Assembly: GCA_041586735.1 (NCBI GenBank)
Contig: JBFGZQ010000013.1
Coordinates: 23,186 to 87,185 of the forward strand
Length of the DNA: 64,000 nt
Direction of reading: 5' to 3'
Origin: Motiliproteus sp.
GTDB lineage: Bacteria; Pseudomonadota; Gammaproteobacteria; Pseudomonadales; Balneatricaceae
Both the position numbers and the translations under genes were made by a program. A model generated the notes under the pieces. That model did no database searches. It was not told where the DNA came from and saw nothing but the letters and a program-made list of their open reading frames with translations. Below are positions 4,232 through 63,636 of the stretch, one piece after another (the stretch's first letter is position 1; the number at the start of each line of letters is the position of its first letter).

Positions 4232-4648
4232 ATGGAGCAATTGATCGAATTCGCCACCAATCACTGGGAACTGTTCGCGGCACTGATCGCGACCCTGGCG
4301 CTACTACTATTTAGTGAATCTAAAAAAGGCGGCACCTCACTCTCAACCCACGCGGCTGTGCAACTGATCAATAAAGAAAACGCCGCAGTAGTCGATATTC
4401 GCCCCAAGAAAGAGTTCAAGATCGGCCACATCACCAACGCCATCAACATCCCTTACGCAGATTTAGACCGGCGTATCGGCGAACTGGAAAAATACCGCAA
4501 CCGCCCTATTATTATTGTCTGCAACCTGGGGCAAACGGCTTCGGGTGCTGTCAAAAAGCTCAATGACGCGGCATTTGCCAACGTGGTTCGGCTATCCGGC
4601 GGCATCACTGAATGGAAGACCCAAAACCTTCCGGTACACAAAGGCTAA
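4232..4648 (+). CDS. Membrane-anchored rhodanese-domain protein (YibN-like)
   Basis: The track ORF is 4073..4648. I moved the start to the ATG at 4232 (MEQLIEFATNHWELFAALIATLALLLF, a TM helix). The rhodanese fold has the active-site loop IIVCNLGQTASGA. The rhodanese-grxC-secB order matches enteric yibN-grxC-secB. Confidence 0.8.
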   Translation: MEQLIEFATNHWELFAALIATLALLLFSESKKGGTSLSTHAAVQLINKENAAVVDIRPKKEFKIGHITNAINIPYADLDRRIGELEKYRNRPIIIVCNLGQTASGAVKKLNDAAFANVVRLSGGITEWKTQNLPVHKG

Positions 4649-4650
4649 CC

Positions 4651-4905
4651 ATGGCCCACATCACTATTTACAGCACCGGTTATTGTCCGTATTGCATCCG
4701 CGCTAAGGCACTACTGGATAGCAAAGCGGCCGCTTACGAAGAGATTCGGGTTGACCTTCAACCTTTGTTAAAACGAGAGATGATGGCGCGCAGTGGCCGC
4801 CAAACTGTCCCGCAAATCTTTATCGACGATCTCCATGTCGGTGGCTGTGATGAACTGTTCGCACTGGAACGCCAAGCCCGCCTCGATCCGCTACTCGGCC
4901 ACTAA
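4651..4905 (+). CDS. grxC: Glutaredoxin 3
   Basis: Start at ATG 4651 (MAHITIYSTGYCPYC). It has the CPYC redox motif plus TVPQIFI and GGCDEL. Confidence 0.9.
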   Translation: MAHITIYSTGYCPYCIRAKALLDSKAAAYEEIRVDLQPLLKREMMARSGRQTVPQIFIDDLHVGGCDELFALERQARLDPLLGH

Positions 4906-22427: not shown

Positions 22428-24290
22428 ATGCATAACGCACTACCCGAGACGCGACCCCAGACCCCGCTGCTGGACCGGATCAATGCGCCAGCCGATCTGC
22501 GCCTGCTCGACAGCCACCAGCTCCCCGAGCTGGCCGAACAGTTGCGCAGCTACCTACTCTACAGCGTCGCCCAGAGCGGCGGTCATTTCGGTGCGGGACT
22601 GGGGGTGGTTGAACTCACGGTCGCCCTGCACTACGTGTTTGACACCCCCCGCGACAGCCTGATCTGGGATGTCGGCCATCAATGCTACCCGCATAAACTG
22701 CTGACCGGTCGCCGTGATGCGCTGCTCAAGATTCGTCAAGCCGATGGCCCATCACCGTTTCCTAAGCGTGACGAGAGCCCCTACGACTGCTTCGGCACCG
22801 GTCATTCAAGCACCTCGATCAGCGCCGCGCTGGGCATAGCGTTGGCCCACAAACTCAAACAGCAACCCCAGCGCGCCGTCGCGGTGATCGGTGATGGCGC
22901 GATGACCGGCGGCATGGCGTTCGAAGCCCTCAATCATGCTGCCCACACCGGTGCCGATCTGTTGGTGATTCTGAACGACAACGATATGTCGATCTCCCCC
23001 AACGAGGGTGGATTGGCAACCTATCTGAGCAAACATCTGCGCAGCGCCTTTACCCTTGACGACCATAACAGCGCACGCCCTAGTGAGCGCACCGGCGCCG
23101 GTACCACCGCGGCCCTGTTTGAAGCGCTGGAGTTCAACTATAACGGTCCGATTGATGGTCACGATCTGGCGCTGCTGGTGTCGACGTTACAGCGCCTACG
23201 CCAAGCCCAGGGGCCACAGTTTTTGCATATTGTCACCACCAAAGGCAAAGGTTTTGCGCCCGCCGAACAGGATCCGGTCGGCTACCACGCCATCACCAAG
23301 CTACCCGCACCAAACGAACAGTACAGCAGCCTGCCGGGAACGGCCTACTCTCAGGTCTTTGGCGACTGGCTGTGCGCCACAGCCGAGCAGGATTCACGCC
23401 TGGTAGCCATCACCCCGGCGATGAGCGAGGGCTCGGGCATGGTCGACTATGCCCGCCGCTTCCCGGCACGTTTTTTTGATGTGGCGATCGCCGAGCAGCA
23501 CGCATTGACCTTGGCGGCGGGGCTGGCGTGTCAACAGATGAAACCGGTGGTAGCGATCTACTCCACCTTCCTGCAGCGCGGTTATGATCAACTGATTCAC
23601 GACATCGCCCTGCAACAACTCGATGTCCTCTTGGCGATAGATCGTGCAGGCTTAGTTGGCGAGGATGGTCCGACCCACCATGGCTGTTTCGATCTGAGCT
23701 TCCTGCGCTGCATCCCCAACCTCCTCATTATGGCCCCTGCTGACGAACTCGAGACCCAACGGTTACTGGAGACCGGTTACCGGCACCCGGGACCCGCCTG
23801 TGTCCGCTACCCACGCGGCAAAGGCCCAGGAACGGCGCTGCAGAACAACCCGCAACCGATCCCGCTAGGCCAAAGCCGAACGCTGCGCCACGGCAAAGGC
23901 GCCGCACTGCTGAACTTTGGCAGCCTGCTGAGCGAAGCGCAGGCGGTCGCCGAAGCGCTGGATCTAACCCTCGTGGATATGCGCTTTGTTAAACCACTGG
24001 ATCACACCCGACTCGTTGAGCTGATCCAGCACCACGGGCTACTGATCACCCTGGAAGAGAACAGCATTGCCGGCGGCGCCGGATCAGGGGTACACGAGTG
24101 GCTTGCACAGCAGCAGTCTAGTCCACATCCACATCAAGACCCACGACAGACCATCAGGATCATCAATCTGGGACTGGAGGATCATTTTATCGGCCACGGC
24201 AGTGCGAGACTACTGCGCAGCCAGGCAGGACTGGACCGCACCAGCCTGATAAACAGGATTCAACCACTCCTCGATCCAAATATTAGTTAG
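22428..24290 (+). CDS. dxs: 1-deoxy-D-xylulose-5-phosphate synthase
   Basis: Start moved to ATG 22428 (MHNALPETRPQTPLLDRINAPADLR). It has GHSSTSISAALG and GDGAMTGGMAFEALNHA..NDN. The xseB-ispA-dxs order is conserved. Confidence 0.95.
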   Translation: MHNALPETRPQTPLLDRINAPADLRLLDSHQLPELAEQLRSYLLYSVAQSGGHFGAGLGVVELTVALHYVFDTPRDSLIWDVGHQCYPHKLLTGRRDALLKIRQADGPSPFPKRDESPYDCFGTGHSSTSISAALGIALAHKLKQQPQRAVAVIGDGAMTGGMAFEALNHAAHTGADLLVILNDNDMSISPNEGGLATYLSKHLRSAFTLDDHNSARPSERTGAGTTAALFEALEFNYNGPIDGHDLALLVSTLQRLRQAQGPQFLHIVTTKGKGFAPAEQDPVGYHAITKLPAPNEQYSSLPGTAYSQVFGDWLCATAEQDSRLVAITPAMSEGSGMVDYARRFPARFFDVAIAEQHALTLAAGLACQQMKPVVAIYSTFLQRGYDQLIHDIALQQLDVLLAIDRAGLVGEDGPTHHGCFDLSFLRCIPNLLIMAPADELETQRLLETGYRHPGPACVRYPRGKGPGTALQNNPQPIPLGQSRTLRHGKGAALLNFGSLLSEAQAVAEALDLTLVDMRFVKPLDHTRLVELIQHHGLLITLEENSIAGGAGSGVHEWLAQQQSSPHPHQDPRQTIRIINLGLEDHFIGHGSARLLRSQAGLDRTSLINRIQPLLDPNIS

Positions 24291-33698: not shown

Positions 33699-35357
33699 AT
33701 GGCTCAATTCGTCTTTACGATGCATCGGGTGGGCAAGATCGTGCCGCCCAAGCGTGAGATCCTCAAAGATATCTCGCTGTCATTCTTTCCGGGTGCCAAG
33801 ATCGGCGTACTGGGCCTCAACGGTTCTGGTAAATCCACGCTGCTGAAAATCATGGCGGGCATCGATCCGGACTTTAACGGTGAAGCACGCCCGCAACCGG
33901 GTATCAACATCGGCTATCTGGCCCAAGAGCCCCACATGGACGACAACAAAACCGTCCGCGAAGTGGTCGAAGAAGCGGTCGCCGAAGCCAAAGATGCGCT
34001 GACCCGACTCGATGAAGTCTACGCCGCGTACGCCGAGCCGGATGCCGATTTCGACAAACTGGCCGCCGAACAGGCCCGCCTAGAAAACATCATCCAGGCG
34101 GTCGACGCCCACAACATCGAACGCCAGATGGAGGTCGCCGCCGATGCCCTGCGTCTACCGGGCTGGGACGAGAAGGTTGAACACCTCTCTGGGGGCGAGC
34201 GCCGCCGCGTCGCCCTGTGCAGACTGCTGCTGTCCAAGCCCGACATGCTGCTACTCGATGAGCCCACCAACCACCTCGACGCCGAATCGGTGGCCTGGCT
34301 GGAACGCTTCCTGGTGGACTTCAACGGTACGGTGGTAGCGATCACCCACGACCGCTACTTCCTAGACAACGCTGCGGGCTGGATCTTAGAACTCGACCGC
34401 GGTCACGGCATCCCTTACGAGGGCAACTACAGCTCCTGGCTGGAGCAGAAAGACGCGCGCCTGGCGACGGAAGCCAAGCAGGAAGCCGCGCATCAAAAGA
34501 CCATCAAATCAGAACTGGAGTGGGTTCGCCAAGGATCCAAAGGGCGTCAATCCAAGTCCAAGGCGCGTTTAAAGCAGTTCGAGGAGATGAGCTCGCAGAG
34601 CTACCAGAAACGCAATGAAACTCAGGAGATCTATATTCCGCCAGGACCCCGTCTGGGCGAGAAAGTGATCGAGCTGCACAACGTCTGCAAGGCGTTTGGT
34701 GAGAAGATGCTGGTCGACAATATGAGTTTCACCATCCCACAGGGCGCAATCGTTGGCGTTATCGGCGGCAACGGTGCGGGCAAGTCCACGCTGTTCAAGA
34801 TGATCAGCGGCACAGAACAGCCCGATTCAGGCGAGGTGGTGATCGGCCAAACAGTCAAGCTCGCCCACGTAGATCAAATGCGCGAGCTTGATGGATCGAA
34901 AACCGTATTTGACGAAATATCGGACGGTCAGGACATCATTACCGTCGGTAACTATCAGGTACCCGCACGCGCCTACGCCGGTCGTTTTAACTTTAAAGGC
35001 GGCGATCAGCAAAAATTCGTCAAAGACCTGTCCGGTGGTGAGCGCAATCGTCTGCACCTGGCCAAACTGCTGAAAGAGGGTGGCAACGTGCTGCTGCTCG
35101 ACGAGCCGACCAACGACCTCGACGTCGAAACCCTGCGCGCCCTGGAAGAAGCGCTGCTGGCATTCCCCGGCTGCGCCATCGTGATCTCGCACGATCGCTG
35201 GTTCCTGGACCGGATCTCCACCCATATTCTTGCGTATGAGGGCGACTCCAAAGCCGTATTCTTTGAGGGCAACTACAGTGAGTATGAAGCCGACTTTCTA
35301 ACACGAGTCGGCGATGCTACGCCTCACAGAGTTAAGTATAAGAAGATCGATGCTTAA
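33699..35357 (+). CDS. ettA: Energy-dependent translational throttle protein EttA (ABC-F); the last 26 sense codons (35279-35354) lie beyond the shared 8-bp core and are island-derived
   Basis: 552 aa with two ABC cassettes (GLNGSGKST/LSGGERRRVAL and GGNGAGKST/LSGGERNRLHL) and no TM domain. Codon usage switches to AT-rich right after AACTACAG at 35271-35278. Confidence 0.95.
   Translation: MAQFVFTMHRVGKIVPPKREILKDISLSFFPGAKIGVLGLNGSGKSTLLKIMAGIDPDFNGEARPQPGINIGYLAQEPHMDDNKTVREVVEEAVAEAKDALTRLDEVYAAYAEPDADFDKLAAEQARLENIIQAVDAHNIERQMEVAADALRLPGWDEKVEHLSGGERRRVALCRLLLSKPDMLLLDEPTNHLDAESVAWLERFLVDFNGTVVAITHDRYFLDNAAGWILELDRGHGIPYEGNYSSWLEQKDARLATEAKQEAAHQKTIKSELEWVRQGSKGRQSKSKARLKQFEEMSSQSYQKRNETQEIYIPPGPRLGEKVIELHNVCKAFGEKMLVDNMSFTIPQGAIVGVIGGNGAGKSTLFKMISGTEQPDSGEVVIGQTVKLAHVDQMRELDGSKTVFDEISDGQDIITVGNYQVPARAYAGRFNFKGGDQQKFVKDLSGGERNRLHLAKLLKEGGNVLLLDEPTNDLDVETLRALEEALLAFPGCAIVISHDRWFLDRISTHILAYEGDSKAVFFEGNYSEYEADFLTRVGDATPHRVKYKKIDA
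35271..35278 (+). repeat. Left junction core AACTACAG (attL side)
   Basis: This identical 8-mer begins both copies of the duplicated ettA end. The sequence to its left is host, and to its right is island-like. Confidence 0.7.
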
Positions 35358-35609: not shown

Positions 35610-35843
35610 ATGGACAGGAATGTTTGCTTTTATTACCGAGAAGAAATCAAGCTTGGGACCATTAAGTACAAGCATTGTGGTTCAATGCTCTCCAATCCTC
35701 AGCTGATCGCTAACGGCACGAAGTCAGAAGGCACTCTCTGGCTTCCCGTTCCAGCCTTTGTTTTATCTCTCTTTGCCTTTATTACGCTGCTTGACCATCC
35801 GCATACTGGGCGGTTTGTATCAAAATTTTTTATTAAAACATAA
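35610..35843 (+). CDS. Small membrane protein with a degenerate zinc-ribbon-like N-terminus (unknown function)
   Basis: 77 aa with an AGGA Shine-Dalgarno upstream. The N-terminus (NVCFYYREEIKLGTIKYKHCGSML) resembles the common C-x2-C..C-x2-C zinc-ribbon peptide, but two Cys positions are Tyr. One TM helix follows (LWLPVPAFVLSLFAFITLL). The gene is AT-rich. Confidence 0.55.
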   Translation: MDRNVCFYYREEIKLGTIKYKHCGSMLSNPQLIANGTKSEGTLWLPVPAFVLSLFAFITLLDHPHTGRFVSKFFIKT

Positions 35844-35861: not shown

Positions 35862-36983
35862 ATGAACTTTCCAGGGAAATATTATATTCTTTGTACTGCG
35901 ATGATTTTCAGTGTCAATGCAACAGCTGCAGCATACAATACTGAAAACTGCAGTTACCTTTCTCGCGCTGATGAAACCCTACAAAAACGCATATTTGATT
36001 GGGTTTACCCGTCAACAGGAATGCGCCCTTCATACGAATCGTTTAGCTCTGTCAGGTATTGCCAAGGATTAATAAGAGAAGCCGCTAATATAGAAAAAAA
36101 TGTGAAATACGTATGCTCTTCGTTCCCAGAAAGTTATTGTAAAGACGAGAAGACCAAGTTAGAAAACAACAATACTCGTATTGATGAGCTCCTCAAAAAG
36201 GCAAGCGAATTAAAAGTAGTCGCCCAAAAAGAAGCCTTGCAAGCGAAGATCAGGAAGGACGAAGAAAAACAAAAAGATGACTTCAATGCAAGGAATACTT
36301 ATTTAGCAGAGCAAGAGCTGAAACAAAAAAAACTTTCCCAGCATAGAGAAGATATGGACCTGGCTCTTAGCGAGCAATGCTTAAGTGAAGTTGAAACCAT
36401 CAAAAGCCATGATGCTTCTATAATTATGCACTGGAATAAAACAATAAGTGATCTTGAATCAGCAGTTAAAAATGAAAACCATCGCTATGCACAACATATA
36501 TACAATAAAGAATTTCCAAAGGTAGCGAATAAGCCAGCTCTTTTAATATATTCAAGTGGTACTGATGAGTGTTTCAAATACACAGAGTACCAGAAACTAG
36601 AATCAGAAATATTTATTGAATTTTCTAGCACAGAAATAAACAAGGATAAGCTAGAGCAGATTATGAAAAATAGTAACAATCAGGCGTCTAGCATTGAATC
36701 AACTAAAAAACATAATGTAACTCCAAAAAATAAAACAGATGCTAAAACAGGTTACTTTGTGGAGTCGGAGGTGCTTTTTTGTAATACAAAGCGTCAGTTT
36801 GATGATCAGATGCTAATGCTAAGTCAGGGCCATAAAAACTATGCTTCTGGTTGTTACTCTACTTTCGGAAATATTGATGTAGTACTTATAGATTTTGGAG
36901 TTCTCGGTGCAACAGAGGTTCGATCGTTATCCAATGGAAAATCCATGTGGATTACGTCTGAGTCTCTATCTAAGTATCAATGA
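35862..36983 (+). CDS. Secreted Lys/Glu-rich coiled-coil protein with Cys-containing terminal domains (unknown function)
   Basis: 373 aa with an AGGGA Shine-Dalgarno and a signal peptide (YYILCTAMIFSVNATAAA). The central region is charged and helical, and the C-terminal part is about 80 aa of beta-rich-looking sequence. I recognise no family. Sampled lines are about 35% GC. Confidence 0.7.
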   Translation: MNFPGKYYILCTAMIFSVNATAAAYNTENCSYLSRADETLQKRIFDWVYPSTGMRPSYESFSSVRYCQGLIREAANIEKNVKYVCSSFPESYCKDEKTKLENNNTRIDELLKKASELKVVAQKEALQAKIRKDEEKQKDDFNARNTYLAEQELKQKKLSQHREDMDLALSEQCLSEVETIKSHDASIIMHWNKTISDLESAVKNENHRYAQHIYNKEFPKVANKPALLIYSSGTDECFKYTEYQKLESEIFIEFSSTEINKDKLEQIMKNSNNQASSIESTKKHNVTPKNKTDAKTGYFVESEVLFCNTKRQFDDQMLMLSQGHKNYASGCYSTFGNIDVVLIDFGVLGATEVRSLSNGKSMWITSESLSKYQ

Positions 36984-37077: not shown

Positions 37078-37224
37078 ATGAAAAAACGAAGCGCTATCAA
37101 GACCGAGCTGTTTGCTGACGCACATCACCGCAAAAAGATCTATTCACTGGGCGATCCGCTGATCGAGATCCAGTCACATATTGATTTTGCGGTATTAGCA
37201 GCTGATTTCAACATAAGCAAATAA
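37078..37224 (+). pseudogene. Possible N-terminal fragment of an IS4/IS5-superfamily transposase (48 codons)
   Basis: My translation is MKKRSAIKTELFADAHHRKKIYSLGDPLIEIQSHIDFAVLAADFNISK*. The L..LGDPL..L...IDF..L pattern recalls the InsH-type transposase N-terminal domain. There is no catalytic part downstream. This is recollection only, with no search done. Confidence 0.3.
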
Positions 37225-37455: not shown

Positions 37456-38001
37456 TCAAGAAGCCTTCAAAAGCCTGTATACACTGGCTTTTGACAATCC
37501 ATACTCGGACATCAACCCCCTTATCAAAACCCCTTCAGAGCGCTTCTGGCGCATCTCAAGTAGCTGCTTATCATCGAGCTTTGCCTTTCTGCCAAATCCC
37601 ACGCCTTTCGCTTTTGCTGACTCAATGCCTTCCATTTGACGCTCTTTTCGCAAGTCAGTTTCGAACTCTGCAATAGCCCCTAGCATGTTGAACATGAGCT
37701 TACCTGTGGGGGTGGTTGTGTCGATGTTCTGATCCAGCACCATAAGCTCCACATTCTTATTTTCCAGTAGCTCACGGATCTGGTTGAGATGGATAGTCGA
37801 TCTAGCCAAACGATCTAGCTTTGTTATGACCAAGACATCGCCATCCCTCACATAATCAAGACACTTTTTCAGCTCAGGCCGATCAGCCGTAGTTCCTGAG
37901 CGTTTCTCCTGATACACCTTGTCACAGCCAACTAGCTTCTCCAGCTGAACATCCAATGACTGACCAACCGTACTCACCCTTGCATATCCTATTCTAGCCA
38001 T
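37456..38001 (-). CDS. Small serine recombinase (resolvase/invertase family)
   Basis: 181 aa with the catalytic-serine motif IGYARVSTVGQ, then DVLVITKLDRLARS, AIAEFE and a C-terminal HTH (GLSKASVYRLLK). Confidence 0.9.
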   Translation of the reverse strand: MARIGYARVSTVGQSLDVQLEKLVGCDKVYQEKRSGTTADRPELKKCLDYVRDGDVLVITKLDRLARSTIHLNQIRELLENKNVELMVLDQNIDTTTPTGKLMFNMLGAIAEFETDLRKERQMEGIESAKAKGVGFGRKAKLDDKQLLEMRQKRSEGVLIRGLMSEYGLSKASVYRLLKAS

Positions 38002-38057
38002 GTCTTACAATCTCTAAGAGCTTAAGATAAACGCATTATAAGACATTGAATAAGACA
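38001..38057. promoter_or_regulatory. Candidate res-like recombinase binding half-sites directly upstream of the small recombinase gene
   Basis: TGTCTTACAAT (38001-38011) faces inverted ATTATAAGACA (38035-38045) and a further TAAGACA (38051-57). A degenerate inverted TAAGATA sits at 38023-29, giving a 29-bp site. Confidence 0.4.
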
Positions 38058-38472
38058 CGCAAGAACAATAGTATCGAAACGTATACTTTTTAAGAATGGC
38101 CCTCTGGCCTTATCCTTAATGACAATTATGCAGCAGTATTAGATTACACACCTATGCTGCATAGGTGTTTAAATCGCCTTAAATCGATGGTAATAACCAC
38201 CCTTAGAGGAGAGTATGGGCTGGTGTAGAAAAGCGATTTAAACATTGTTACGCAAGGCTATAGCATGCCTAGCACAATGACTAATGCTTATCTCCAGCAA
38301 GGAAGAGTCAGTAGCTATACCCTAATAGCGCCAGACTATGAGTGCGTGTCATGGATGTAGCAAGGGGGCTACTTTAGCAATGTATTATTTTATTTGTTAT
38401 GCATTTTGCATTCACTGGTTTGGGTGTTAAGGGAAAGGGTTAGGTGGTGGAGGGTATGTATGTCGATAGCAT

Positions 38473-38605
38473 CTACGTTCCAGTAACTAGCGGAGTAACT
38501 ACCCAAGTAACTACGTTCCAGTAACTAGCAAAATAACCATCAAATTAACCATCAAATTAACCATCAAATTAACCATCAAATTAACTAACAAATTAACTAT
38601 AAAAA
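38473..38605. repeat. Array of ten about 12-bp-phased TAAC units, including TAACCATCAAAT x4 perfect
   Basis: GTAACTA occurs at 38483, 38495, 38507 and 38521 (spacing 12, 12, 14). These are followed by TAACCATCAAAT x4 (38534-38581), then TAACTAACAAAT and TAACTATAAAAA. Confidence 0.9.
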
Positions 38606-38675
38606 CCGAGTGTGGGAGGGGGGTGCGGGTAGCATTAGAGACACTCTACGCGTACATTTTTTGATCAATTTCTTT

Positions 38676-38693
38676 GTAACTTGTTGAAGTTAC
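38676..38693. other. Hairpin GTAACTT-gttg-AAGTTAC followed by a T-run
   Basis: A perfect 7-bp inverted repeat that again contains GTAAC. Confidence 0.5.
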
Positions 38694-38752
38694 TAACTAT
38701 TTTTTAGCAAAGTCCACGTAAATGGCCTACTATAAATCAATGACTTACGAGC

Positions 38753-38848
38753 GTCTCAAAATGGCCTAAAAATCGCCTCAAAAACGACCTCAAAAACGAC
38801 CTCGAAAACGATGATTCTGAGGGGTGTTTTTCGGGCTGTTTTTGTGAG
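38753..38848. repeat. Array of 12-bp CCTCAAAAACGA-type units (3 good plus 2 degenerate direct copies) facing two inverted degenerate copies
   Basis: CCTCAAAAACGA occurs at 38776 and 38788, and CCTCGAAAACGA at 38800. Degenerate copies lie at 38753-64 and 38765-75. Inverted GTGTTTTTCGGG (38824-35) and CTGTTTTTGTGAG (38836-48) face them. Confidence 0.85.
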
Positions 38849-39254
38849 CAAAATACCCTCGTCAGTGACCTCCGTGGTGTGAACTACCTTTTGATATCGG
38901 TGCATGTGCTGTATGGGCGTTTTAAGCACTTTTAAGAGGGGTCTGAGTCGTACCTATACAAACGGGTAGGGTAACGTCAAACCACGGTTTAAATGTCAAC
39001 TGAGGGGCCTTAAAGGCACTTCTACGGTGGTAGATATCACTAGGGTCTTACTCTCTCGTAATTTTAGAGCACGAGTCTTAAACCCACCTTGATTACCACC
39101 ATTATATTTTGGTGTATTAGTCTAGAGTGATCAAGCAAAGAGGTTGTTAAGCGAATAGCTTAGACAGTAATAGCGCTCACCACTAGGCTAGACTGTCATA
39201 TCTAATGATTCCTATCTAATCTGGCAGCAATTACCTTAATGTTTTTGATGCATT

Positions 39255-40919
39255 TCAGGGGGTGAATGATTTGATTGCAACCGAGAGGTCTTTGCTAGCC
39301 AAGCTAATTGCTTTAGCCTCCTCATACAGGTCTTTAGTATCGGCTTCTATTGATGCTGCATCAGCATACCGAGGGCTATCTATCCCTTCATCTTCGCAAA
39401 CATCCTTTCCAACGGAACCGGCATACCAGAAAAACCAGTGACCGTCTTTGAGAGTTATGACGTATGTGTCTGGAGAATGAACTTCCAGCCTACCTAGATA
39501 TGAAAGAACGAACTGCCTTAGCCTTACCCTATCAGACCTAAGATCGTCATAGACGTATCGTGCCTCGCTAAAGCTAAGTAACTGCTTCGACTCAACCTCC
39601 AAGCCTTGCAGCTCGTCTTCTAGCAAGGCTCTTTGATTGGCTGCATCCTCGGCAACTAGCTTAGCTTTTTCACTAAGTGAGGCAGAGGTACTAAAATACT
39701 GTTCCGCCGCTTTATCCTCGCGTTGCTTCAACTCCTCGATCTTAAATTTCAATGATTCAATCGTATCCGCTGTTTCTCCCGTCCAATCGGTTCCCTGATT
39801 GCGTAAAGATCGCAACATTCCTCTAACCACTTCCATTTCTAATCGCAGATACGGTACCCAAGGCAAAGAACACCCATTTTTAGCTAAACGCCCCGAGCAC
39901 ACCACGTAGCACACCCATTTCACACCAGACTTCACCCGCCTATAGTGAAGAGGGCAACCACATTCATTACAGTAAATTTTCCGCTGAAAAACGTTTGCCG
40001 AATCCTGGCTATTACCCGTCCGACCTTTGTTCAGCCTATTCTGCTTTGAGATCTGTTTGATTCTTGAGTGCTGCTCCATAGTTATGATCGCAGGATAGAA
40101 ACCATCTATGGGCGGCAACTCCTTACCCTCTAACCCCCTATGCGGGATGTACTGACCTGCTAGTGACGGGTTAAGCATAATTTTTCGAACAGCCCCTTTA
40201 CTCCAAGAGGTAGGATTGCGCTCACCAGTCTCCCTGTTAATCCTGCCATAACCAAACGTAGGAACACTTTCTGCGTTTAAAACATTAGTGATATGTACAG
40301 CCCCCTTACCCTGATTCAGGTAAAGATCGACCATACGCTCAACCACAGCTTTACGCTCTGGGTTAAAGACCCAGTTGTTCTGTTCGTCCAGATCAAGCCA
40401 CTTAGGAGCTATACCACGATGCTTTTTCTTTCCCTCTCGGATGGCCTTATGAGCCTTCTGAGCACGGTCTGACTTAGTAGCACTCTCATCATATGCTCTT
40501 TGCATCGAGGCTATTGCCATGAAGAGTAAGCCAGGATTTATTGAGATTGTTTCTCTACTGTAACTTGTTGGCTCACCGATCAGAGTGGTGATAATCACTC
40601 CAGCTTGAACGATCTGAGTGAACTGGGAGAATGCATTCAACACCTCCTCACGTGACAACCTATCAAGTGACTCTGATAAAAGGATGCAAGGGGTCTTGAT
40701 CCTCCCAGCGTTCAAGCAATCTAAGAACACCCCTAATCGACCGTTTACACTGTTATCCCCGTGATAACCACTAAGACCTAAGTCAACATAACGCTCGGGA
40801 TCAATCAGGGTAAGGTTATAATTGTCTGCATACTCAACAGCTCGTTCAATTTGACGCTGAATACCGCCACCAAGCCGCTGCTTATCGCTACTGATACGGG
40901 CGTAAAGGTACGCGTCCAT
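39255..40919 (-). CDS. Large serine recombinase (integrase)
   Basis: 554 aa. It has an N-terminal resolvase domain with the catalytic Ser in LYARISSDKQ, a recombinase domain, a Cys-rich zinc-ribbon region (CNECGCPLH..CSGRLAKNGC), a coiled coil (KFKIEELKQREDKAAEQ...) and an acidic C-terminus. Confidence 0.9.
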   Translation of the reverse strand: MDAYLYARISSDKQRLGGGIQRQIERAVEYADNYNLTLIDPERYVDLGLSGYHGDNSVNGRLGVFLDCLNAGRIKTPCILLSESLDRLSREEVLNAFSQFTQIVQAGVIITTLIGEPTSYSRETISINPGLLFMAIASMQRAYDESATKSDRAQKAHKAIREGKKKHRGIAPKWLDLDEQNNWVFNPERKAVVERMVDLYLNQGKGAVHITNVLNAESVPTFGYGRINRETGERNPTSWSKGAVRKIMLNPSLAGQYIPHRGLEGKELPPIDGFYPAIITMEQHSRIKQISKQNRLNKGRTGNSQDSANVFQRKIYCNECGCPLHYRRVKSGVKWVCYVVCSGRLAKNGCSLPWVPYLRLEMEVVRGMLRSLRNQGTDWTGETADTIESLKFKIEELKQREDKAAEQYFSTSASLSEKAKLVAEDAANQRALLEDELQGLEVESKQLLSFSEARYVYDDLRSDRVRLRQFVLSYLGRLEVHSPDTYVITLKDGHWFFWYAGSVGKDVCEDEGIDSPRYADAASIEADTKDLYEEAKAISLASKDLSVAIKSFTP

Positions 40920-40969
40920 AACTCACTCTCCCCAGAAGATGAGATAGACAATAGCATGTTAGAATGTAT

Positions 40970-41056
40970 AACTACAGCGAGTACGAAGCCGACCTCGTGA
41001 CTCGTATCGGCGACACCACGCCACACCGGGTCAAATACAAAAAGATCGACGCGTAA
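40970..41056 (+). pseudogene. ettA: Displaced original 3' end of ettA (attR side)
   Basis: It reads NYSEYEADLVTRIGDTTPHRVKYKKIDA*, with GC3-rich host-like codons. It is collinear with 35271-35357 and followed by the original terminator. No start codon or upstream reading frame exists. Confidence 0.85.
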
Positions 41057-63579: not shown

Positions 63580-63584
63580 ATGAC

Positions 63585-63636
63585 CTAAGCAACAAGCCTA
63601 AGCAACAAGCCTATTCAACAAGCCTATTCAACAAGC
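63585..63636 (+). repeat. Four tandem 13-bp units in the glnK leader
   Basis: CTAAGCAACAAGC x2 is followed by CTATTCAACAAGC x2, located between the sigma-54 promoter and the ribosome-binding site. Confidence 0.9.

Follow-up and report, generated by a model that had tools for sequence, protein, structure and literature searches.

The 64,000-nucleotide window analyzed here, from contig JBFGZQ010000013.1 of Motiliproteus sp. (positions 23,186 to 87,185 of the forward strand), carries a 5.7-kb island of 34–48% GC within host DNA of 53–63% GC, inserted into ettA, an ABC-F gene, at its 3′ end. Flanked on one side by the large serine recombinase gene of the island and on the other by an orphan tnpR–res module of Tn3 type, ten direct repeats, each containing TAAC, form an array with a 12-bp period. 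Within a non-coding module of approximately 420 bp (38422–38843), which we propose to be cis-acting, this TAAC array stands out most. The array consists of two sub-arrays:

38469..38533, + strand: sub-array A1, four AGTAACTA cores (38482, 38494, 38506 and 38520) at 12/12/14-bp spacing, with a preceding degenerate unit
38534..38605, + strand: sub-array A2, TAACCATCAAAT four times without deviation, then TAACTAACAAAT and TAACTATAAAAA

The repeat geometry reported in the original prediction was confirmed. GTAACTA starts at 38483, 38495, 38507 and 38521; TAACCATCAAAT follows four times without mismatch (38534–38581), succeeded by TAACTAACAAAT at 38582 and TAACTATAAAAA at 38594; and TAAC recurs ten times in phase at approximately 12 bp (38484, 38496, 38508, 38522, 38534, 38546, 38558, 38570, 38582 and 38594), the start-to-start spacings being 12, 12, 14, 12, 12, 12, 12, 12 and 12 bp. 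One additional TAAC lies out of phase at 38586. The core common to all ten units is TAAC(C/T)A, longer than the TAAC first described: the ten units agree at 6 of 6 positions when Y is allowed, and the first four share the 8-nt core AGTAACTA, identical at 8 of 8 nt. A degenerate eleventh unit, GCATCTACGTTCCA, lies upstream of the array at approximately 38469. All four GTAACTA copies of the island fall within the array, and the rest of the 64-kb window holds a single one, at 34948. Because CTACGTTCCAGTAACTAGC occurs exactly twice, as 19-bp copies at 38473–38491 and 38511–38529, a 38-bp duplication is superimposed on the 12-bp unit. A2 is approximately 75–80% A+T with few G on the + strand, and its duplex is among the least stable in the island. 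Logan short-read contigs from runs X1–X3 break within the four perfect 12-mers (38544–38585), and the unit number given here is that of the assembly.

The ten-unit, 12-bp-phased array is real and far beyond chance. For 4-mers recurring at exactly 12 bp, the longest run in the island was 7, whereas 500 simulated islands (first-order Markov) gave at most 3; at the other periods from 8 to 16 bp no island run exceeded 3. TRF scores of 112–126 are the highest of the 64-kb window, making the array its strongest tandem repeat.

The remaining parts of the module lie on both sides of the array:

38422..38456, + strand: left G-rich flank with four GGG runs, GGGTGTTAAGGGAAAGGGTTAGGTGGTGGAGGG
38611..38633, + strand: right G-rich flank, GTGTGGGAGGGGGGTGCGGGTAG, directly after the AT-rich half of the array
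38657..38737, strand unspecified: AT-rich spacer of low duplex stability
38745..38843, + strand: array B, a second array of 12-bp period

Both G-rich tracts contain four GGG runs on the + strand and bracket the G-poor array; to judge from their composition they could form G-quadruplexes or be mere boundaries. The array motif reappears 70–90 bp downstream, as the palindrome GTAACTTgttgAAGTTAC (GTAACTT/AAGTTAC, 7-bp arms; 38676–38693) within the spacer and as one direct TAACTA at 38694. Array B, absent from the original prediction, is located 140 bp to the right of the TAAC array and comprises approximately five CCTCAAAAACGA-type units (38755–38811) followed by two inverted T5 units (38821–38843); its core, ACC(A)TCAAA, is similar to the A2 unit. 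When 80-bp windows of the island were ranked by lowest duplex stability, 38525–38605 ranked second and 38657–38737 fifth. A single match to the IHF consensus lies at 38735, and no DnaA box was found in 38100–39254 with up to one mismatch allowed. The 1,253 bp from 38002 to 39254 are free of open reading frames (ORFs) of at least 60 aa, and a six-frame Pfam scan revealed no pseudogene traces in this non-coding region.

The array thus has, in form, the anatomy proposed for it originally, that of a cooperative protein-binding array: an invariant core, variable and unrelated spacers, and a palindrome nearby. The A1 spacers (GCGG, CCCA, CGTTCC and GCAAA) are unrelated in sequence and unequal in length. 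Set against the invariant 8-nt cores, these diverged spacers read as a signature of protein recognition and not of neutral slippage, and the palindromic copy of the motif points in that direction too. This contrast bears directly on the explanation that the array has no present function, being either a minisatellite produced by slippage or unequal exchange, or the decayed origin or partition relic of a plasmid or phage that donated the tnpR–res module. Cores that stay invariant while the spacers next to them are saturated and differ in length are not an expected product of neutral decay in a slippage array; nor are the copy of the motif as a palindrome outside the array, the second organized array with the surrounding G-rich and AT-rich layout, and the freedom of the region from pseudogene traces what a functionless repeat would lead one to expect. 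Recent duplication, on the other hand, is indicated by the exact 19-bp repeat and by the four 12-mers without a mismatch, and favors a functionless array.

A transcriptional or architectural element is another possible reading of the module: phased A-tracts shaping the DNA upstream of a leftward tnpR promoter, a site at which a host nucleoid or silencing protein nucleates on AT-rich foreign DNA, or a segment of a non-coding RNA. A single, weak sigma-70-like match was found here, on the minus strand immediately to the left of the array (38430–38403) and directed towards tnpR; A-tracts recur every 12 bp in both arrays; and the minus strand of 38110–38470 folds slightly better than shuffled sequences (z = −2.7). 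However, promoter-like sites in the region are fewer than expected by chance and no terminator-like sites were found there, 12-bp phasing does not produce planar curvature, and the remaining folds around the array are unremarkable (z = −0.7 to −1.3). Rfam returned no match over the island at E ≤ 1, and the sequence was found in no RNA runs. We consider this reading improbable. A structured non-coding RNA in particular was rejected, with no Rfam family and no fold clearly beating shuffled sequence (z = −0.7 to −2.7).

The integrase gene and the island ends are arranged as follows:

39255..40919, − strand: 554-aa large serine recombinase (Resolvase + Recombinase + Zn_ribbon_recom), the integrase of the island, beside attR
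35271..35350, + strand: attL side, AACTACAG followed by the island-supplied replacement of the ettA 3′ end
40970..41049, + strand: attR side, AACTACAG followed by the original, displaced ettA 3′ end

The island ends form an 80-nt imperfect direct repeat (35271–35350 and 40970–41049), each copy beginning with AACTACAG. The last 29 codons of ettA are supplied by the island and share 76% DNA identity with the displaced copy (35271–35357 versus 40970–41056), so that ettA stays intact after integration; the EttA of the window is 91% identical to that of a Motiliproteus metagenome-assembled genome, which places the host among the marine Oceanospirillales. The reconstructed attP carries the symmetric motifs TGTTAGAA (40957–40964) and TTCTAACA (35296–35303). 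Its midpoint of symmetry would fall on GA at 35280–35281 (equivalent to 40979–40980), two bases beyond the right end of the 8-bp AACTACAG, and this GA, outside the AACTACAG identity, is probably the crossover dinucleotide.

On the other side of the array lies the resolvase module:

37456..38001, − strand: 181-aa small serine resolvase (Resolvase + HTH_7)
38002..38110, − strand: Tn3-family res site with TGTCTTA-type half-sites, located by alignment with related loci

The resolvase is 63–81% identical to Tn3-type and plasmid resolvases, and its closest plasmid homologues (62–65%) include TnpR of minimal Tn3-family transposons; no transposase accompanies the tnpR–res module. The res region, the 110 bp upstream of tnpR, aligns with the tnpA–tnpR intergenic DNA of Sulfitobacter and Ruegeria Tn3 elements, with which it has TGTCT-type half-sites in common, and with Synechocystis pSYSG. 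In contigs whose resolvases are up to 81% identical, DNA similarity extends from inside tnpR to approximately 38090–38095 and no farther, tnpR and res being all that these relatives have in common with the window. Therefore, tnpR and res constitute a self-contained module that ends approximately 380 bp short of the array. The array and res share one intergenic region, but res consists of inverted half-sites at 38002–38110, whereas the array consists of direct repeats. As a Tn3-family res site, which has inverted subsites within approximately 120 bp upstream of tnpR, the array was rejected, since its repeats are direct and lie 360 bp beyond res, outside the conserved module. Between res and the array we also observed a near-perfect palindrome with 14-bp arms (TTACACACCTATGC t GCATAGGTGTTTAA, 38144–38172) and a 15-nt inverted repeat with arms 49 nt apart (38166–38244), one arm of which overlaps that palindrome. 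A candidate for the outer end of a Tn3-type terminal repeat at 38938–38946 (GGGGTCTGA) has no partner copy and poor similarity to real inverted repeats, and is probably a chance match.

The original prediction connected the array with integration through the heptamer TAACTAC, shared with the reconstructed attP. The sharing itself stands, with TAACTAC present at 38496, 38508 and 40969, although the start coordinate first given was wrong by one; these are the only three copies on the + strand of the window, two in the array and one at attR. On this view the 554-aa integrase, the 181-aa resolvase or a directionality factor would bind the array and modulate excision or integration via TAACTAC. The confinement of the heptamer to array and attR speaks for such binding, as does the position of the array between the two recombinase genes, and a phage contig (L058) likewise has an array of five GTAAC units with G-rich flanks, approximately 1 kb from genes for a serine integrase and an HNH protein. 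Nevertheless, at least one 7-mer in common with the array, on either strand, occurs in 179 of 529 60-bp windows of the island (34%) and in 22% of those of the host, and array and attP have no 8-mer in common. The match is therefore at the level of chance, as the caveat attached to the original prediction had allowed. The nearest integrase relative, 44% identical and also located in ettA, at AACTACAGCGAGTA, reads gAAACTACAG, so the T of TAACTAC is not conserved.

Further observations go against recombinase binding. The symmetric attP motif (TGTTAGAA/TTCTAACA) differs from the array core, the resolvase has its own conserved res with homology at related loci ending at approximately 38090–38095, and the large serine recombinase of L058 is unrelated to that of the island. 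No comparable tandem array was found in the nearest, ettA-targeting relative or in the comM-targeting relatives, the contigs of which are partly incomplete; the 5.5-kb contig of the nearest relative shows no tandem repeat at all. Large serine recombinases act on att sites of 40–50 bp and are not known to use accessory arm arrays, a minimal att together with a protein directionality factor generally being sufficient. With no att relationship beyond chance and no conservation with related recombinases, the array was rejected as an accessory or att-type site of the 554-aa recombinase, and its recognition by either recombinase or an accessory factor is very improbable. The link to the integration core is not supported; att, res and the array are three separate features.

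The rest of the island, about one third of which is non-coding, encodes little. Its cargo comprises two ORFs, of 77 aa (35610–35843) and 373 aa (35862–36983), neither of which has a match in Pfam, PHROG, PADLOC or NCBIfam; the 373-aa protein has zero homologues among 5.8 billion proteins. The 77-aa ORF encodes a Cys pair and a single hydrophobic helix, and the 373-aa ORF a signal-peptide-like N-terminus and a middle part rich in lysine and glutamate. A 48-aa ORF at 37078–37224, considered as the N-terminus of an IS5-type transposase, was dropped for lack of Pfam or PHROG support. No Rep, primase, helicase, Par or terminase gene was found in the island. The element is present in four runs, all from one marine metagenome study.

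A scan of genome contigs with the integrase gave no match; the nearest protein is the 44% identical one, and the ettA island that encodes it (L001) also has a small resolvase gene, its product 34% identical and oriented as its integrase. Among 80 ettA loci scanned in GTDB species, no serine recombinase lay close by, and no same-species empty site was among them. More distant relatives, approximately 30% identical over the full length (L087, 10001–19700; L012; L089), lie in split comM (Mg-chelatase-like) genes and carry DNA methyltransferase-type cargo. Members of this large serine recombinase family apparently insert small cargo islands, with comM or ettA as the target gene. PICMIs require int, alpA and a primase gene beside fis (PMC10803314); membership of the island in this group was rejected, with alpA, primase and the fis context all absent.

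We then looked for counterparts of the array elsewhere. A blastn search of 38002–39254 against plasmids and phages, and a search of IMG/VR for exact 24-mers of both arrays, returned no match. The A2 24-mer matched four JGI metagenome sequences, each in an unrelated context and judged a convergent simple repeat. In three of the four, the match belongs to a short repeat of AAATTAA type that separates convergently transcribed genes in another organism, which shows that AT-rich 12-mers such as A2 can arise independently. Degenerate phased patterns gave 55 matches (the phased GTAACTA pattern) and 12 matches in IMG/VR. Nearly all are coding repeats of 4 aa or low-complexity DNA of giant viruses; two are non-coding, L058, described above, and the viral contig L054. 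The latter carries GTAACTAGC five times, two more copies inverted, and an AT-rich stretch (4434–4692), between a gene for an 802-aa primase/helicase-like protein directly before the array and a VRR-NUC-like gene; it is probably a phage origin. Both contigs were kept as analogies only. Within the host DNA of the window, a perfect to near-perfect 13-bp repeat occurs four times in an intergenic region at 63584–63636 (CCTAAGCAACAAG / CCTATTCAACAAG), just downstream of a sigma-54-like TGGCAC-N5-ATGCT and approximately 60 bp upstream of a P-II (glnB/glnK-like) gene.

Among the known repeat-array systems, iteron-type theta origins such as RK2 oriV contain direct repeats, then AT-rich repeated 12–13-mers, then a G+C-rich tract, and the order of elements in the array region is the same. 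Classical iterons are 17–22 bp long, spaced at approximately 22 bp, or about two turns of the helix, and accompanied in cis by DnaA boxes and a rep gene. The array differs in its period of 12 bp, its core of 6–8 nt, and the lack of a DnaA box and of any Rep-like protein or pseudogene in our searches. As a classical iteron-type origin it was rejected on repeat length, DnaA box and rep gene; only the neighboring AT-rich regions of unwinding type (38525–38605 and 38657–38737) agree.

Satellite origins offer a second comparison. SaPI origins contain 6–12 penta- or hexanucleotide iterons around an AT-rich center (PMC9371898), and PLE, which integrates by a large serine recombinase, has its origin in a 2.7-kb repeat-bearing non-coding region (PMC7145576). 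The likeness lies in multiple short cores beside easily melted AT-rich DNA, in a non-coding part of a small integrative island (PMC7145576, PMC9371898). In contrast to both, whose origins lie next to a gene for their own initiator, the island encodes none, and sequence similarity between the array and these origins is zero. SaPI iterons stand on both sides of the AT-rich center in opposite orientation, whereas all ten units here point one way. Beyond the right G-rich tract there is an AT-rich stretch with the palindrome and one TAACTA, and the layout is asymmetric. SaPI and PICI origins also lie directly downstream of their own rep or pri-rep, whereas the neighbors of the array are a serine integrase and a resolvase gene. 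The lack of an adjacent rep gene counts against a SaPI-type origin, and the asymmetric layout may do so as well.

Plasmid centromere arrays match in repeat number and period. The tubC locus of pBtoxis has seven 12-bp repeats in two sets, and stbS of R388 has ten repeats with an 11-bp cycle in two sets of five; spiral binding has been proposed for TubR on the seven tubC repeats, and binding to one face suggested for the 11-bp cycle of stbS (bioRxiv 10.1101/2022.04.29.490116). The expected role of such arrays is to seed a filament or ring of cooperatively binding protein (PMC6009700). R1 parC, tubC and stbS have seven to ten direct repeats of 11–12-bp period in two sets, and the array has ten at 12 bp, arranged 4 + 6. 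These loci differ from the array in that each immediately precedes, and autoregulates, the gene of its binding protein; the array has no adjoining ORF of at least 60 aa. They also work with a partner NTPase, or with StbA alone, whereas a six-frame family scan around the array gave no match. With no adjacent gene for a binding protein or motor partner found in 38002–39254, a centromere of the parC/tubC/stbS type was rejected, although repeat number and period fit. Taken together, the array, which if functional would work like an iteron or centromere array, fits no specific family: repeat length and the lack of a DnaA box and rep gene speak against theta origins, the missing adjacent rep gene and perhaps the layout against SaPI-type origins, and the missing adjacent binding-protein gene against parC, tubC or stbS. 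It is an unconserved case of the phased short-repeat arrays of mobile elements.

Our tentative preference, held with less than even confidence, is that the array is a cis-acting site, similar to an origin or centromere, at which a trans-supplied factor assembles. A sequence-specific DNA-binding protein would read the TAAC(C/T)A core and polymerize along the 12-bp-phased sites, so that a nucleoprotein complex would form on the 5.7-kb circle after excision. With sites 12 bp apart, not 10.5, each is rotated by approximately 50 degrees relative to the one before it, so the bound protein would spiral around the DNA in a helical wrap instead of binding to one face. The island offers no candidate binder besides the two recombinases, and therefore the protein would have to be provided in trans, either by the host or by a helper (a phage or plasmid), with the island as a minimal hitcher.

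Replication initiation would be the most likely purpose of such a complex, and segregation, packaging or transfer less likely. The succession of repeats, AT-rich 12-mers, G-rich tract, AT-rich spacer and second array resembles a replication origin more closely than anything else. The conserved-core sites would then act as iterons, the perfect AT-rich 12-mers with the adjacent AT-rich stretch as an unwinding element, and the G-rich tract as a boundary. The res site and resolvase next door would make sense for multimer resolution of a replicating circle, a circumstantial fit. An origin in this specific sense is nevertheless rather doubtful.

Several observations weigh against an assembly site, and most of them favor an array without present function, which we regard as nearly as likely. 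A cognate binding protein is neither encoded in the island nor seen anywhere, although known centromere arrays lie directly upstream of the gene for theirs; the region holds no DnaA box, even with one mismatch allowed; and the period is 12 bp, against 17–22 bp in classical iterons. The array and its setting have no homologue in plasmids, phages, IMG/VR or JGI metagenomes, so that conservation cannot be shown, and the element, present in just four runs from a single marine study, is in effect a singleton. In A2, the four units without a mismatch have the look of recent slippage. An unrelated freshwater-type contig has independently acquired a nearly identical array of 12-mers, similar AAATTAACCATC repeats having arisen in an unrelated intergenic region, and the host chromosome has its own perfect 13-bp intergenic repeat, four times over. 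Contig depth was 16.2 inside the island versus 22.4 for the host-joined contig in one sample, and 25 versus 34 and 5.75 versus 7.22 in two others; being slightly below the host-joined contig, island depth gives no sign of extrachromosomal amplification or episomal replication. The transposase-less, orphan resolvase, the one third of non-coding DNA and the ORFan cargo are signs of erosion. For the assembly site stand the invariant cores, the palindrome and the organized layout of the module set out above, together with 1.15 kb clear of ORFs and pseudogene remains in an element of 5.7 kb, in which neither an Rfam family nor a strong RNA fold was found.

An inert array would be just another AT-rich minisatellite, carried by a decaying island and without wider consequence. 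A fuller version of the assembly-site reading, which we consider unlikely, is that the island is an initiator-less hitcher, a 5.7-kb serine-recombinase cassette whose mobility functions, integration apart, would be limited to cis sites (the TAAC array as iterons or centromere, an unwinding element, the second array, and res with its resolvase). Through these it would recruit the protein by which a helper, a phage or plasmid of Motiliproteus-like bacteria, is replicated, segregated or packaged. To our knowledge, every satellite described so far (SaPI, PLE and PICMI) encodes at minimum an initiator or primase of its own, and such a hitcher, if real, would be one step of reduction past them. If functional, the array would mean that a very small serine-recombinase island can rely wholly on cis sites to exploit helper machinery, and that the 12-mer may be usable as bait for the helper in marine Oceanospirillales.

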